DNA of 64,000 nucleotides, taken from assembly GCF_055900595.2 (NCBI RefSeq), contig NZ_CM148325.1; one strand, 5' to 3'. Made by a program: the position numbers and the translations under genes. How positions within the stretch are numbered: position 1 is the stretch's first letter; the number at the start of each line of letters is the position of its first letter. The notes under the pieces were generated by a model that saw only the letters and a list, made by a program, of their open reading frames with translations, did no database searches and was not told where the DNA came from. This document shows positions 52,117 through 59,687 of this stretch, piece by piece.

Positions 52117-52541
52117 GTGAAGCTTTATCGCTTTTCTCGTTGTTTGCCAGTAGTTTCCTCAGCGCTACACTATTACCCGGTAATTCCGAAGTCGTGCTGG
52201 TTGCAATGTTGCTTTCCGGGGTAAGTCATCCCTAGGTTTTAGTGTTAACAGCAATAATGGGTAATAGCCTTGGAGGGTTAACTAACGTTATTCTTGGGCG
52301 TTTCTTTCCATTGCGTAAAACATCGCGCTGGCAAGAGAAAGCTACTGGTTGGCTGAAACGCTATGGTGCAGTCACGCTATTATTAAGCTGGATGCCCGTG
52401 GTTGGCGATTTACTGTGTCTGTTAGCGGGATGGATGCGCATCTCCTGGGGGCCAGTAATCTTTTTTTTGTGTCTTGGTAAAGCGTTACGTTATGTTGCAG
52501 TTGCAGCAGCGACCGTTCAGGGCATGATATGGTGGCACTAA
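52113..52541 (+). pseudogene. yqaA: DedA-family inner membrane protein YqaA interrupted by in-frame amber (TAG at 52233-52235)
   Basis: GTG at 52113 opens VSEALSLFSLFASSFLSATLLPGNSEVVLVAMLLSGVSHP-TAG-VLVLTAIMGNSLGG..., continuing in the same frame into ORF 52242..52541. Confidence 0.75.
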
Positions 52542-52586
52542 TTGTAGGCCTGCACACATGGTCACCATTACAGTTATGCTAATTAA

Positions 52587-54170
<1,584 letters not shown>

Positions 54171-54175
54171 CAGAA

Positions 54176-54250
54176 AAGAAAAAGGCCACTCGTGAGTGGC
54201 CAAAATTTCATCTCTGAATTCAGGGATGATGATAACAAATGCGCGTCTTT
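54176..54250 (-). ncRNA. micA: small regulatory RNA MicA (SraD)
   Basis: Minus strand reads GAAAGACGCGCATTTGTTATCATCATCCCTGAATTCAGAGATGAAATTTTGGCCACTCACGAGTGGCCTTTTT; between gshA and luxS, divergent from luxS. Confidence 0.85.
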
Positions 54251-54319
54251 CATATACTCAGACTCGCCTGGGAAGAAAGAGTTCAGAAAATTTTTAAAAA
54301 AATTACCGGAGGTGGCTAA

Positions 54320-54835
54320 ATGCCGTTGTTAGATAGCTTCACAGTCGATCATACCCGGATGGAAGCGCCTGCAGTTCGGGTGGCGAAAACAATGAACACC
54401 CCGCATGGCGACGCAATCATCGTGTTCGATCTGCGCTTCTGCGTGCCGAACAAAGAAGTGATGCCAGAAAGAGGGATCCATACCCTGGAGCACCTGTTTG
54501 CTGGTTTTATGCGTAACCATCTTAACGGTAATGGCGTAGAGATTATCGATATCTCGCCAATGGGCTGCCGCACCGGTTTTTATATGAGTCTGATTGGTAC
54601 GCCAGATGAGCAGCGTGTCGCTAATGCCTGGAAAGCGGCAATGGAAGACGTGCTGAAAGTGCAGGATCAGAATCAGATCCCGGAACTGAACGTCTACCAG
54701 TGTGGCACTTACCAGATGCATTCGTTGCAGGAAGCGCAGGATATTGCGCGTAGCATTCTGGAGCGCGATGTACGCATTAACAGTAATGAAGAACTGGCAC
54801 TGCCAAAAGAGAAGTTGCAGGAATTGCACATCTAG
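54320..54835 (+). CDS. luxS: S-ribosylhomocysteine lyase LuxS
   Basis: 171 aa; HTLEHL metal-binding motif. Confidence 0.96.
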
Positions 54836-54852
54836 TCAGTTTAAGCAGAAGA

Positions 54853-54884
54853 GGCCGGGCTGGTGAAATCACCGCCCGGCTTTT
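54853..54884 (+). terminator. luxS rho-independent terminator
   Basis: ggccgggctggtgaaatcaccgcccggc + TTTTATT; convergent gene stop codon abuts it. Confidence 0.7.
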
Positions 54885-54885
54885 A

Positions 54886-55998
54886 TTACCTGTCAGTCAC
54901 CCGATATTCCACGCTATGTGCTTCATCAGGTTGAGGAACTTCCAGCCTTGAGGCCATCCGCATCACGACCGCTTCAGGAACGGCATACTCGCGCCTGGCA
55001 TTTTGCTGCTTCCATTGCGCCCACGGTACTTCCAGATAAACGATTTTTACTCGTGCACCGTAAGCCGTAAATAGACTGATGAGCTGGCTACGCAACTGGC
55101 GGGTAATGTTCGTTGCATTCCAGATGAACGGCTTCTTCTGGCGTAAAAAAACGCGCGCTTCTTCTTTTGCCTGTTGCACAATACGCCCGGTGGCGGTTTT
55201 GTCGTCCGGACTGGCATTGATTCGCCGCCGCATATCATCAAGGCTGATAACGTTCACTCTCTGGCACTGTTCACTGATAAAGCGATCTTTGCCCATACCC
55301 GGTAAACCACACAGCAAAATAACCTCAAAAGATTCAGCCTCCCAGGGAACAAAATCAGGAGAACTTTGTTCATGGGTCAGGTAATGCCAGCGTGCGGAAT
55401 CCGAAGCGAATGAACGCACTTTTCCCCAGCATTGTTGCTCCTGGCAAAATAGCTCGAACAGATCGATGCGTTCCAGCATTGATTGCTGATCATGACAATG
55501 GCGACCAAGCAGATCGGCACGAGCAAGCAAAGCGAGCAGACGTGTGTCGATACGCATTGCAGCCGTGAGCAGCAAACGCTCCGGTTCCGGACGTTCCAGT
55601 AACCATAGCGGTAACCCATGCAGACGCACCAGTGCAACAATTTGCTCGCGTAGCACGAACGGCGTCGGGATATCGCGCCATAAAATTTGTCGGGCCGTCA
55701 ATTCCCCCCGACGAGCATGACCAGGGGACTGAATACGTCCGTTTTCCTGCACGGTAGTACTGCGCTTTTCAACGTCATGCAATAACGCCGCCGCCCATAA
55801 AATTTCCTGCTGCTGAGCGGGGAGTTGCTGAAACTCAGCCATCGCAACGAGTGCGTTCAGCACCATTTCAGTATGCACACCAACGTCGCCTTCACCATGA
55901 TGCTCCGGGTCTTGCGGCGTGTTATGCATATCCTCAACCCAGCTAAAACGCTGGCGTAGCGTCGACCAGCGTTTGTCGTCGGTAAGTTGCCAAATCAT
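54886..55998 (-). CDS. bifunctional HD-domain phosphoesterase / P-loop polynucleotide kinase-like protein (HD-Pnk type)
   Basis: 370 aa; N-terminal HD motifs ([18 protein letters not shown]), C-terminal P-loop-like GLPGMGKD; start overlaps upstream ligase stop (ATGA). Confidence 0.75.
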
Positions 55999-56702
55999 GA
56001 CTGTTCTCCATAAGCGAACTCATGGGCCATCCGCGCCCGTCGCCAGTGGCGTTTCCAGTGCTCGGTGGTTTTGACATGATTTTTGCGCACATACTTGAAG
56101 ACGTTATGCGAAAAGTCAGCGACGGAAAACGCATCACGATTCCGGCTGACAATGCCTTCCAGCGTACAGGGTTGCCCGGTTTGTGTATCCCAGGGATCGA
56201 ACGCGCCGCGCGCATTGGTCAGCGCCAGAAAATCACGTTGCCAGCTTTTTTCATCATTCCCCGGCTGCGGGCCGGAGATTTCGGGAACGCAGGGGAAATC
56301 AAACAGAGCGGCGTAAAACTGCACCTCTTCCCAGCTCAGCCACATATCCTGGCAGCGAACGGCAAACAGGTAAAAGTCCTGTTCCAGGGCGCGGTATTCA
56401 ATGGAATGAACGGCGTAGAGATTTTCACCAAACAGTTCCAGATCGCCGAGATCGTTTTTCAGCAGTTGCCAACGCTGGCGAATTTTATAAGTCCATGCCG
56501 ACTGCGTAGGCGCAGCATGGGAACGGGCAAACACGCCGTAGCGGTTAAGGCAGTTATTTTCGCCGTCGAGTTTTTCTGTATGCACCAATTGCGTGATGGC
56601 CTGTAAATCCTGCCAGTAATCGGCATTAATACGGTCATCGCTGGTGGTGCCAGGGGAGAAAGGATAATGCCAGGTTCTCCCGTATTTCCGTTGGGTATTC
56701 AT
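55995..56702 (-). CDS. ATP-dependent polynucleotide (RNA/DNA) ligase-like nucleotidyltransferase
   Basis: 235 aa; motif I KLDG, motif IV-like LEGIV, motif V-like FKYVRK; first gene of two-gene operon. Confidence 0.75.
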
Positions 56703-56754
56703 AATAATCCATTATTTTGTGTGTAATAAATGTACGCCCGCGAGGGTGCGAGTT

Positions 56755-56922
56755 ATGGGGTTAAAAGAAAAATGTGAGTATCACCCGCGAAAGCGAGGGC
56801 GAAGGAAAAAGAGAATTAACAACCTGAGCGAATGCTCAGAACCGGTTAATGGTGAATGGAAGAGTTTGGGGCGGCGAAAAGATACACCGTTTGAGATGAT
56901 AAAACAACCGTTTACAGAATGA
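56755..56922 (+). CDS. possible small basic protein (55 aa), speculative
   Basis: ATG preceded by GAGGG 8 nt upstream; product MGLKEKCEYHPRKRGRRKKRINNLSECSEP...; divergent from ligase operon; no homology support. Confidence 0.25.
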   Translation: MGLKEKCEYHPRKRGRRKKRINNLSECSEPVNGEWKSLGRRKDTPFEMIKQPFTE

Positions 56923-56924
56923 GC

Positions 56925-56952
56925 AAATAAAAAGGGAGCCGCAGCTCCCTTT
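56925..56952 (-). terminator. emrB rho-independent terminator
   Basis: Minus strand: gggagctgcggctccc followed by TTTTT directly after emrB stop. Confidence 0.7.
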
Positions 56953-56959
56953 GACAACC

Positions 56960-58498
56960 TTAGTGCGCACCGCCTCCGCCGCCACCTGCGCCAAATGGCG
57001 GTTTAGCAAACCACACCAGCCCCAGCAGGACGAGGAATATCCCGGCTGACATCCAGAAGATCTCATTGGCGGAAATAATCAGCCCCTGATTGGTGATCTG
57101 CTGGGCAATCCAGCCTGATGCCTGTTGTTGCGTCATCCCCAGCCCTTCCAGTTGGCTGTACATCGCCTGAGCGTTCGGGTTAAACGGGTTTACCGACTCG
57201 GTTAACTGTGCGTGGTGCATCGACTCGCGGTTAGTCCACATGGTGGTGGTGATGGATGTGCCGATAGACCCCGCCAGCGTTCGCGTAAAGTTAGAGAGGC
57301 TCGATGCCGCCGCCAGTCGTTCCGGTGGCAAACCAGACAGCGTAATGGTGGTCAGCGGCATAAAGAAGCAGGCCACTGCGAAGCCCTGGATAAACTGCGG
57401 CCAGGCCGACGCACCAAAATCCATACCCGGTTCAAAGGTATAGGCACGCCAGTAGAAGCAGACGGCATACATAATAAAGCTGAAGGTTACCAGCCGCCGC
57501 ATATCCAGTTTATGCGCGAAGCGGCCGATAATCGGCGACAGGATCACCGGAATAATCCCTACCGGCGCAGAGGCCAAACCTGCCCAGGTCGCCGTGTAAC
57601 CGTAGACCTCCTGCAACAACTGCGGCAGCAGAACAATCGCGCCGAAGTAGAGCATATACGCGAGGCTGATACACAAGCAGCCGATGGTGAAGTTGCGCGA
57701 CTTAAACAACGACAGATCGACTATCGGGTTATCGTCGGTCAGCTCCCAGACAATCAGGAAGCAGATAGCCACCACCGCCACCACGGTGAGGATGATTATT
57801 TCCTGCGATGAGAACCAGTCCAGCTCTTTACCGCGGTCGAGCATAATCTGCAGGCTGCCGATACCAATCACCAGCAGTGCCAGCCCCACGGCATCAATCC
57901 GCCGCCGTTCGGTGCGGGTTTCGCGTCCGCGCAGGGTTTGCAGTGTCATCAACACCACCGCCACGCCAATCGGCACGTTGATGAAGAATATCCAGCCCCA
58001 GTGGTAATTATCGCTGATATAACCGCCGAGGATCGGGCCGCAAATTGGCGCGACAATCACCGTCATCGACCACAACGCCAGCGCGATCGAGCGTTTGGCT
58101 GGCGGGTAGTTATTCAGCAATAGACTTTGCGAAAGCGGGATCAATGGCCCGGCGACAATCCCCTGAATCACGCGGAAGAAGATCAGCATATTCAGGCTGC
58201 TGGAGACACCACATGCCCACGATGCAATAGCGAAGGCGATGGTCGACCAGAGGAACAGCTTCACTTCCCCAACACGTTTTGCCAGCCAGCCGGTAAGCGG
58301 GATCGAGATGGCATTCGCCACCCCGAAAGAAGTGATTACCCACGTTCCCTGGCTGAGCGATGAGCCCAGATTCCCGGCGATAGTGGGGATCGCCACGTTA
58401 GCAATGGTGGAGTCCAGCACCTGCATGAATGTCGCTAGTGACAGCGCAATCGTCATAATGACCAGTTGCGCGCCTTCCAGCGGTTTTTGCTGTTGCAT
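56960..58498 (-). CDS. emrB: multidrug efflux MFS transporter EmrB
   Basis: ORF trimmed to MQQQKPLEGAQLVIMTIALSLATFM... (512 aa). Confidence 0.94.
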   Translation of the reverse strand: MQQQKPLEGAQLVIMTIALSLATFMQVLDSTIANVAIPTIAGNLGSSLSQGTWVITSFGVANAISIPLTGWLAKRVGEVKLFLWSTIAFAIASWACGVSSSLNMLIFFRVIQGIVAGPLIPLSQSLLLNNYPPAKRSIALALWSMTVIVAPICGPILGGYISDNYHWGWIFFINVPIGVAVVLMTLQTLRGRETRTERRRIDAVGLALLVIGIGSLQIMLDRGKELDWFSSQEIIILTVVAVVAICFLIVWELTDDNPIVDLSLFKSRNFTIGCLCISLAYMLYFGAIVLLPQLLQEVYGYTATWAGLASAPVGIIPVILSPIIGRFAHKLDMRRLVTFSFIMYAVCFYWRAYTFEPGMDFGASAWPQFIQGFAVACFFMPLTTITLSGLPPERLAAASSLSNFTRTLAGSIGTSITTTMWTNRESMHHAQLTESVNPFNPNAQAMYSQLEGLGMTQQQASGWIAQQITNQGLIISANEIFWMSAGIFLVLLGLVWFAKPPFGAGGGGGGAH

Positions 58499-58514
58499 TA
58501 CACGCACCTCTGGA

Positions 58515-59687
58515 TTAGCCAGCGTTAGCTTTTACGATATCGTCGATCAGTTTATTGACAGGAGCCAGGCTTATTTCACGCGCGGTGCTCACCGCTACCG
58601 GCGTAGAACGTACTTTATTTGCCAGTACCTGACCGTCACGGTTAGTGGTATTGACGCTCACCAGCGTGGATAAACCGATACGCAGCGGGTATTGTTCCAG
58701 CTGTTTTTGGTCCAGTTCAATACGTACAGGCAGACGCTGAACAACTTTTATCCAGTTACCAGTGGCATTTTGCGCCGGAAGCAGCGAGAACGCGCTACCT
58801 GTCCCCATATCCAGACCAACCACTTTACCGGTGTATTTCACATCATCGCCGTAAATATCCGTGGTGATGGTGACCGGCTGACCGATGCGCATATTGGCAA
58901 TCTGCGTCTCTTTAAAGTTGGCATCCACCCACATATTGGTGGCTGGAACGACCGCCATCAGCGGCGTCGTTGGGCTAATTTGCGCCCCAGGCTGTACTGC
59001 TCGGCGGGAGACATAACCGGTCATCGGACTGACAATACGGGTACGCTCCAGCGCCAGCCAGGCGTTACGTACTTCGGTGGCAGCCTGTTGCACGGCAGGC
59101 TGATCTTCCAGTTTAGTCCCCAGAATCATCGCCTGATTGGCATTGTATTGTTGAATGGCGACATCCAGTTGCGCCTGGGCACTGGTCACCGCGTCGCGGG
59201 CGTGTTGCAGCTCTTCGCGACCAATCAGGTTGGCATTGCCCAGCGGCACACGGCGGTTGTAGTCGCTTTGTGCTTTCGCGAGGGCGATTTTTTGCACCTC
59301 AATATTCGCCTGCAACTGTTTGCTGTTAATCATCAGCTGGTGGGTTTGGCGCACGCTGGAAGCCAGTGCCGTTTTGGCTTTTTCAAACGCCTGGCGAGCA
59401 TCTGTCGGGTCGAGAGTGACCAGCACATCGCCTTCTTTTACAAAATCGGTGTTATCGGCCCAGACTTTCGTCACGCTGCCAGACACCTGAGACATAATTT
59501 GAATCTGATTCCCTGCCACGTATGCGTCATCGGTTTCTTCGAAATGACGCAGTACTAAAAACCAATAAATCCCTATCGCTACGGCAATAATTATAAAGAG
59601 CAAGGTGAGAAGCAGGAGCAGACGCTTACGTTTGCCGCTCTTCTTTACCGGTTGCTGCGGGGTTTGAGTCTCCGCATTTGCGCTCAT
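58515..59687 (-). CDS. emrA: multidrug efflux periplasmic adaptor EmrA
   Basis: ORF trimmed to MSANAETQTPQQPVKK... (390 aa). Confidence 0.94.
   Translation of the reverse strand: MSANAETQTPQQPVKKSGKRKRLLLLLTLLFIIIAVAIGIYWFLVLRHFEETDDAYVAGNQIQIMSQVSGSVTKVWADNTDFVKEGDVLVTLDPTDARQAFEKAKTALASSVRQTHQLMINSKQLQANIEVQKIALAKAQSDYNRRVPLGNANLIGREELQHARDAVTSAQAQLDVAIQQYNANQAMILGTKLEDQPAVQQAATEVRNAWLALERTRIVSPMTGYVSRRAVQPGAQISPTTPLMAVVPATNMWVDANFKETQIANMRIGQPVTITTDIYGDDVKYTGKVVGLDMGTGSAFSLLPAQNATGNWIKVVQRLPVRIELDQKQLEQYPLRIGLSTLVSVNTTNRDGQVLANKVRSTPVAVSTAREISLAPVNKLIDDIVKANAG

Follow-up and report, generated by a model that had tools for sequence, protein, structure and literature searches.

The subject of this analysis is a two-gene cassette in a stretch of 64,000 nucleotides from contig NZ_CM148325.1 of assembly GCF_055900595.2, hereafter called the window. 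Lying between luxS and emrB, the cassette consists of a gene for a 235-residue protein of the RNA ligase family followed by one for a 370-residue protein, here called HD-Pnk, that couples an HD domain to a polynucleotide kinase; together they probably form a chromosomal operon for the healing and sealing of nucleic-acid ends. Where the two genes meet, the minus strand reads CAGTCATGATTTGG, with the stop codon TGA of the ligase gene and the start codon ATG of the HD-Pnk gene fused as ATGA. An initial annotation, made from the letters of the window, had described two coupled minus-strand open reading frames (ORFs) between the terminators of luxS and emrB, forming some 2 kb of extra DNA without integrase or insertion sequence (IS), and had proposed profile searches and an alignment of the interval as checks. 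This description stands: the ORFs and their overlap are as claimed, every protein motif that it quoted is in place, both hairpins are real, and luxS and emrB, which it gave as neighbors in K-12, are indeed only 57 bp apart in a K-12 derivative, where the cassette is missing. Homology with that genome ends at 54840 and resumes at 56959, the segment in between measuring 2118 bp; among the ORFs of the window, no integrase or IS was found in or beside the two-gene block, and there are no repeats. No publication on the pair in E. coli came to light.

The ligase covers the entire Pfam model RNA_ligase (PF09414, E 4.4e-28), and its nucleotidyltransferase motifs I, III, IV, and V are conserved in an alignment of 60 homologs reaching down to 29% identity (Table 1). 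Its AlphaFold2 model is of high confidence (predicted local distance difference test score, pLDDT, 94.4), and the best fold matches are NgrRnl (the Naegleria Rnl5), T4 Rnl2, archaeal Rnl3, and the LIG domain of fungal Trl1. Likeness to all of these RNA ligase classes is nevertheless limited, with template modeling (TM) scores of only about 0.5 and 15–20% identity. A profile search of the sequences in the PDB gave the adenylyltransferase domain of Candida glabrata tRNA ligase (9qw7, E 1.1e-4) as best match and NgrRnl at 1e-3, so that E-values against the Rnl and Trl1 classes are 1e-4 or weaker, while the scores of DNA ligases trail those of RNA ligases by a factor of 100 to 1000 in both sequence profile and fold. 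The domains that define the classes, C-terminal in Rnl1, Rnl2, Rnl3, and Trl1 and an N-terminal oligonucleotide/oligosaccharide-binding (OB) domain in Rnl5, are missing, which places the protein outside each of them. What it does share are the features of the stand-alone ligases typified by Deinococcus radiodurans DRB0100: a length of about 210–240 residues, an adenylyltransferase domain only, the N-terminal sequence KYPxxxHxPxSPG..DD, and TEKLDG as motif I near residue 40. Direct comparison with DRB0100 gives 35% identity (E 3e-27), and the latter begins MRVKYP, with the same KYP signature, and has TEKLDG as its motif I. In sum, the E. coli protein represents a separate clade and amounts to the adenylyltransferase domain alone; K44, the equivalent of K40 in DRB0100, is its predicted adenylylated lysine. 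One further candidate relationship was rejected. Mollusc hemocyanin repeats were returned by phmmer against the PDB for residues 77–173, with a summed E of 3e-9, but single stretches are non-significant; the match is regarded as spurious, amplified by repeats and drawn from a segment rich in W, F, and Y, and the profile and fold searches gave RNA ligases instead.

HD-Pnk divides into two halves. Its kinase half matches AAA_33 in Pfam (E 2.2e-31) and resembles bacter_Pnkp in NCBIfam, and its closest solved relative is the kinase of Clostridium thermocellum Pnkp (4gp6; sequence E 8.8e-5, fold E 1.4e-6), the other nearest matches by sequence or fold being mammalian PNKP, T4 Pnk, and the fungal Trl1 kinase. 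The N-terminal half matches the Pfam HD family only weakly (PF01966, E 1.6e-3), a family that is however also annotated for many homologs in precomputed form; in NCBIfam this half is akin to HDIG and the HD region of CCA-adding enzymes, and in the fold search to the tRNA nucleotidyltransferase 3wfp. Across 16 homologs, H34, D38, H74, D75, and D162 are invariant in the HD domain, as are K237, D254, R257, R303, and R336 in the kinase. The protein therefore has the makeup of the HD-Pnk type: an N-terminal HD domain with ligands in the order H...HD...D, a C-terminal kinase with Walker A Lys, Asp, and Arg, and a gene that lies downstream of, and overlaps, the ORF of a putative ATP-dependent ligase. 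We take Asp254 and Arg257 to have the catalytic roles familiar from polynucleotide kinases in general. Over its full length, HD then kinase, the protein is collinear with DRB0098 of D. radiodurans (28% identity, E 4e-30). Given the Pfam E-values and the invariance in 60 and 16 homologs, the motif matches of the two proteins are not due to chance, and the initial annotation was right to place the first in the covalent nucleotidyltransferase superfamily and to read the second as an HD domain plus a kinase-type P-loop: the profile searches returned the RNA ligase family for one and HD and kinase families for the other. It had also called the P-loop, which ends in GKD, atypical. An Asp does replace the usual Ser or Thr, but this is no defect of the E. 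coli protein: GKD ends 86 of the 87 P-loops that could be recognized in the 120 best homologs, and by virtue of this invariance across relatives the GKD P-loop is a fixed hallmark of the subfamily, not a lesion.

The two genes keep company far beyond E. coli. When one genome was scanned for each species, 342 species had a relative, and the loci of the best 80, which belong to the Enterobacterales and the Bacteroidota, were studied. In every one of these 80 species, HD-Pnk is immediately preceded on its own strand by the ligase gene, the distance between the two ranging from -12 to +87 nt. That HD-Pnk enzymes are often encoded beside an ATP-dependent ligase, as the initial annotation had stated, agrees with this count, with the published layout in Runella slithyformis (PMC6097658), and with the homology to DRB0100 and DRB0098. 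A same-strand rtcB gene stands beside the cassette in 26 of the 80 loci (L012 5480–9101, L045 5067–9104, L070 4526–9104, and 23 others), prfH in 14, and tpt1 in two; NCBIfam identifies these neighbors as release_rtcB (584 bits), prfH (305 bits), and RNA 2′-phosphotransferase (265 bits). The order rtcB-prfH-lig-hdpnk is found in 14 of the 80, rtcB is directly upstream of the pair in Serratia and many Bacteroidota, and one Dysgonomonas locus reads rtcB-prfH-tpt1-lig-hdpnk, the whole amounting to RNA-repair clusters of four or five genes. RtcB2-PrfH is known to rescue and re-ligate ribosomes whose 16S rRNA has been cut by colicin E3 (PMC9304027, PMC9223846), and linkage to rtcB, prfH, and tpt1 favors RNA repair for the present pair as well. 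Among the neighbors in the 80 loci, most of them from unannotated families, we noticed no Ku, nuclease, or polymerase. No model of PADLOC-DB v2 matches the ligase or HD-Pnk, and the cassette is not a recognized defense system. The papers on PrfH and RtcB do not mention the pair, nor is it among the four accessory gene classes in the main text of the 2019 review by Burroughs and Aravind, as far as the part seen of the second class goes and the supplement aside. New here are the pairing in 80 of 80 species, the linkage to rtcB, prfH, and tpt1 (which may have been described before), the GKD hallmark, and the broken ligase gene of Nissle 1917 and ATCC 25922 described below.

How might such a pair work? 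A break would leave a 2′,3′-cyclic-phosphate or 3′-phosphate end and a 5′-OH end. The HD domain of HD-Pnk would take off the 2′ or 3′ phosphate and its P-loop domain would phosphorylate the 5′-OH, after which the ligase would adenylylate itself on Lys44, move the AMP to the 5′-phosphate, and join the ends. The likeliest substrate would be a structured RNA of translation, tRNA or rRNA, cut by ribotoxins or under stress, and the pathway would complement RtcB by handling ends that RtcB cannot use. We give a probability of roughly 60% to this reading of the cassette, that of a chromosomal two-gene operon that heals and seals nucleic-acid ends with RNA of the translation apparatus as its likeliest substrate. 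It draws on the domains and folds of both proteins, the conservation of their catalytic motifs, their strict pairing, purifying selection, vertical inheritance, and the linkage to RNA enzymes; RNA of translation is favored as substrate because the ligase is nearest to RNA ligases and because of the neighbors rtcB, prfH, and tpt1. All enzymatic activities of the E. coli pair are predicted from homology, and the nature of the substrate and the joining of strands by the ligase are likewise predictions. Reversal of ribotoxin damage, the counter-defense role proposed in the initial annotation, may be its purpose.

Several points weigh against this reading, and its weak point is the joining step, since no member of the ligase clade has sealed any substrate in vitro. 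DRB0100 self-adenylylates at K40 and sealed neither DNA nor RNA, alone or with DRB0098 and DRB0099 (Blasius et al., PMC1997131), and the Runella ligase forms ligase-AMP and seals none of the 3′-OH/5′-PO4 substrates tried (Munir et al., PMC6097658). The E. coli ligase is without an OB domain or other nucleic-acid-binding appendage, kinase activity with a GKD P-loop is a prediction from homology, and a lineage of 85 E. coli genomes tolerates a frameshifted ligase. Beside the E. coli cassette itself, rtcB, prfH, and tpt1 are absent, its flanks in 52500–59500 being gshA, luxS, emrB, and emrA. Part of the evidence points to DNA. Were the pair to repair DNA breaks, HD-Pnk would clean 3′-phosphate and 5′-OH ends of DNA in the manner of mammalian PNKP and the ligase, perhaps with a partner, would seal them. 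Runella HD-Pnk also acts on DNA 3′-phosphate ends, mammalian PNKP is among the fold matches of the E. coli protein, and, to go by a 2018 title of Schmier and Shuman, DraHD-Pnk reportedly abets resistance to ionizing radiation and mitomycin C. The Deinococcus operon, moreover, is strongly induced by gamma-irradiation and has been regarded as serving DNA repair (PMC1997131, PMC11833690). We nonetheless consider DNA repair unlikely: both sequence and fold put the ligase nearest to RNA ligases, with DNA ligases far behind, and it has no OB or DNA-binding domain; DRB0100 sealed no DNA (PMC1997131), and the recurrent neighbors are RNA enzymes.

The ligase might also be something other than a conventional joiner of 3′-OH and 5′-PO4 ends. 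It could need an end such as 3′-OH,2′-PO4, as Trl1 does, with Tpt1/KptA acting afterwards, or it could only adenylylate or cap the 5′ end of RNA or some other acceptor. Such an enzyme would fit adenylylation without sealing in two laboratories (PMC1997131, PMC6097658), as well as the top profile hit in the PDB, a tRNA ligase domain, the linkage of tpt1 to the pair in Runella (PMC6097658) and in a few of the loci studied, the PARG-like macro protein encoded between both genes in Deinococcus, and the nearly invariant N-terminal KYPRTxHxPFSPG..DD that is unique to the clade. Set against this are the rarity of the tpt1 linkage, at two in 80, the intactness of all classical ligase motifs, motif V included, and the weakness of the Trl1 match, which is on a par with those to Rnl5 and Rnl2. 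In addition, Runella HD-Pnk removes 2′-phosphates and would destroy a 2′-PO4 end. A non-canonical ligase accordingly strikes us as distinctly unlikely. A tentative and, on balance, doubtful refinement is that the ligase serves a single damaged RNA of translation, either rRNA or tRNA cut by a ribotoxin and still in its native ribonucleoprotein, or a 2′-phosphate end later cleared by Tpt1/KptA. A dedicated substrate would account for the two laboratories' finding of adenylylation but no sealing on generic substrates; it would mean a second pathway of ribosome or tRNA repair, parallel to RtcB2-PrfH and regulated through a conserved leader, and could give bacterial KptA a natural substrate.

It remains to be considered how the cassette came to lie between emrB and luxS. 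The initial annotation took it for a strain-specific insertion, and a recently acquired, mobile island of defense or counter-defense would account for its presence or absence within E. coli, for its sporadic distribution across phyla, with about 55–65% identity between Enterobacterales and Bacteroidota, and for homologs in jumbo and huge phages. The whole interval is covered in 994 of 5426 complete E. coli genomes and the ligase gene is found in 998, always on the chromosome, while about 82%, K-12 included, have the 57-bp spacer instead. The same site is nevertheless occupied elsewhere: the cassette follows emrB in eight species of Enterobacteriaceae from at least six genera, namely E. coli, another Escherichia, Klebsiella spallanzanii, an Enterobacter sp., Superficieibacter, Kosakonia, Phytobacter, and an uncultured Enterobacteriaceae genome. 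In five of the eight, luxS comes at once after it, giving the arrangement emrB-cassette-luxS in Escherichia, Klebsiella, Enterobacter, and Superficieibacter. Between genera, the ligase is 81–88% and HD-Pnk 71–78% identical, as against 82–85% for EmrA and 83–88% for GshA. Within Escherichia, synonymous divergence (dS) is 0.21–0.29 for the cassette and 0.17–0.33 for luxS, emrB, and gshA, and the ratio of nonsynonymous to synonymous divergence (dN/dS), 0.04–0.05 for the ligase and 0.10–0.13 for HD-Pnk, indicates strong purifying selection on both genes. The GC content of the cassette is 0.52–0.53 in a window of 0.529. With one chromosomal site across genera, dS equal to that of the flanks, and normal GC, ancestral presence followed by loss is likelier than insertion: the cassette is best seen as an old resident locus, inherited vertically and lost from most E. 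coli including K-12. The recent and strain-specific part of the insertion claim is thus largely refuted. The lack of integrase, IS, and repeats, and of any PADLOC match, speaks further against a mobile island, as do the plasmids, where an HD-Pnk homolog occurs in just 30 of 72,556 records, mostly megaplasmids, and the cassette on none from E. coli. We hold such an island to be highly improbable.

The ligase gene is not intact in all carriers. A 10-bp deletion of TGCCAGGATA (nucleotides 349–358 of the gene, about 56345–56354 of the window; in ATCC 25922, locus L003, 3194–3891) frameshifts it in 85 of the 998 genomes, those of Nissle 1917 and ATCC 25922 among them, with HD-Pnk left intact. In some E. 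coli without the cassette (H24, H25), the short luxS-emrB spacer carries an IS200C transposase. Phages have members of the ligase family as well, 27 jumbo or huge ones with hosts such as Caulobacter, Agrobacterium, and Xanthomonas, and an uncultured 462-kb phage (LR756500.1, 24519–26287) encodes ligase then HD-Pnk with order and orientation kept, at 39% and 34% identity. In a further set of apparently eukaryotic proteins of 590–2357 residues, inspected in P0285, P0286, P0296, P0343, P0361, and P0387, the ligase domain is fused to a second RNA-ligase-like domain (EEKVDGANLG) and to a kinase whose P-loop reads GSGKS.

The cassette is bounded by hairpins on both sides. The luxS and HD-Pnk genes converge on a common one, which is a good terminator on the plus strand but has a weak U tail on the minus strand. 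At the other end, the leader, about 230 nt long, runs from the emrB terminator to the ligase start; it is conserved over six genera, far above silent sites, and contains, besides the elements listed in Table 1, a second conserved GC-rich block. The leader looks regulatory and could act by attenuation or by controlling translation. Its candidate promoter boxes are 17 nt apart and make a plausible sigma-70 promoter, although a consensus sigma-70 scan gave no minus-strand promoter upstream of the ligase; Rfam has no match in the leader, and covariation is uninformative there because the paired blocks are invariant. A LexA box was considered for the CTG-N10-CAG in the leader and rejected: its spacer is not AT-rich and differs in length between genera, for which reasons the motif is read as the hairpin. 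Between gshA and luxS, the window also carries the small RNA MicA (54180–54251, minus strand; Rfam RF00078, 83.9 bits, E 6.5e-13), an ordinary known feature.

Table 1. Features of the ligase/HD-Pnk locus; positions are those of the window.
Feature	Position	Strand	Basis or remark
Ligase gene, 235 aa	55995..56702	-	ORF; RefSeq "RNA ligase family protein", WP_032303631.1
HD-Pnk gene, 370 aa	54886..55998	-	ORF; RefSeq "AAA family ATPase", WP_000638150.1
ATGA stop/start overlap, translational coupling	55995..55998	-	Ligase TGA and HD-Pnk ATG
Hairpin common to convergent luxS and HD-Pnk genes	54850..54884		-26.3 kcal/mol, z -5.2
emrB intrinsic terminator	56931..56952	-	Bounds the block
2118-bp segment, 57 bp in K-12-type genomes	54841..56958		Alignment to K-12 derivative
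Conserved leader/promoter region	56703..56930	-	Alignments across nine Enterobacteriaceae loci
Candidate -35 TTGTTT	56907-56902	-	17-nt spacer to -10
Candidate -10 TATCTT	56884-56879	-	Plausible sigma-70 promoter with TTGTTT
UUCCAU element	56861-56856	-	Complementary to Shine-Dalgarno region AAUGGA, 56713-56708
Invariant hairpin CTGAGC..GCTCAG	56839-56824	-	Variable loop, U-rich run after it; terminator-like site
Ligase N-terminal family signature KYPRTxHxPFSPG..DD	56634..56687	-	K6, Y7, R9, H12, S16, D22, D23 nearly invariant in 60 homologs
Ligase motif I KLDG	56562..56573	-	K44, D46, G47 invariant in 60 homologs
Ligase motif III GENLY	56415..56429	-	E93 invariant in 60 homologs
Ligase motif IV EGIV	56148..56159	-	E182, G183 invariant in 60 homologs
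Ligase motif V KYVRK	56082..56096	-	K203 invariant, R206 nearly invariant in 60 homologs
HD first metal-ligand block HHGEGD	55885..55902	-	H34, E36, G37, D38 invariant
HD signature LLHDVEK	55765..55785	-	H74, D75 invariant
Kinase P-loop GLPGMGKD, Asp for usual Ser/Thr	55285..55308	-	LPGMGKD (L232-D238) invariant in 16 homologs; first position Gly/Ala
ISLDDMRR, predicted catalytic Asp254 and Arg257	55225..55248	-	Aligned to VISSDFCR of C. thermocellum Pnkp

The ligase/HD-Pnk pair has been known since 2007 in Deinococcus and since 2017 in Runella, and its substrate and biological role are an unsolved problem, which an intact and strongly conserved copy in E. coli makes genetically tractable. Nature even supplies the controls, in the form of K-12 without the cassette and of Nissle 1917 and ATCC 25922 with a frameshifted ligase. 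The recurrent linkage to rtcB-prfH, a module proven on ribosomes cut by colicin E3, suggests a concrete class of substrates and offers a lead in ribosome and rRNA repair. It also comes with a caveat for published work: ATCC 25922 is the strain of the RtcB2-PrfH colicin E3 studies, and these cannot report on the cassette because the ligase gene is broken there.

Among known systems, the closest by direct comparison is the Deinococcus operon DRB0100-DRB0099-DRB0098, which likewise has the ligase first and HD-Pnk last, overlapping ORFs, and a bare adenylyltransferase as its ligase; DRB0098 is an active 5′ kinase (PMC1997131, PMC11833690). Unlike the E. coli locus, it has a PARG-like macro gene (DRB0099) between the two, an HD-Pnk of 413 residues with an insert and the usual P-loop GPSGSGKS, and a place on a megaplasmid beside IS elements, whereas the E. 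coli pair is contiguous and chromosomal. By published description (Munir and Shuman 2017), Runella is alike in the order HD then kinase and in the ligase ORF immediately upstream and overlapping, its HD-Pnk being an HD 2′,3′-phosphoesterase plus 5′-OH kinase; it differs in having tpt1 and an MTase-HIT gene upstream, neither of which is present at the E. coli locus (PMC6097658). A search for homologs with Dyadobacter as the seed gave no protein under the name Runella, and the Bacteroidota relatives, including Dyadobacter from the family of Runella, are 53–59% identical to the E. coli proteins for HD-Pnk and 52–68% for the ligase.

RtcB2-PrfH resembles the cassette as a sporadic RNA-repair operon, of which we know no intact form in K-12, and in Serratia and many Bacteroidota the two are joined as rtcB-(prfH)-lig-hdpnk. 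RtcB, however, joins 3′-phosphate or cyclic-phosphate ends directly to 5′-OH without healing, has an unrelated fold, and is not beside the cassette of the window. T4 Pnkp with Rnl1, bacterial Pnkp/Hen1, and fungal Trl1 share with it the combination of 5′ kinase, 2′,3′ phosphoesterase, and ATP-dependent ligase, with kinases of the same family. Their phosphoesterases are of the DxDxT/HAD, calcineurin, or 2H type where that of E. coli is an HD domain, and the E. coli system has neither the C- or N-terminal specificity domains of the ligases Rnl1 to Rnl5 and Trl1 nor a Hen1 methyltransferase. From these comparisons, the pair in the window is the enterobacterial ortholog of the Runella and Deinococcus ligase/HD-Pnk operons, and as such a member of a known operon type rather than something categorically new.

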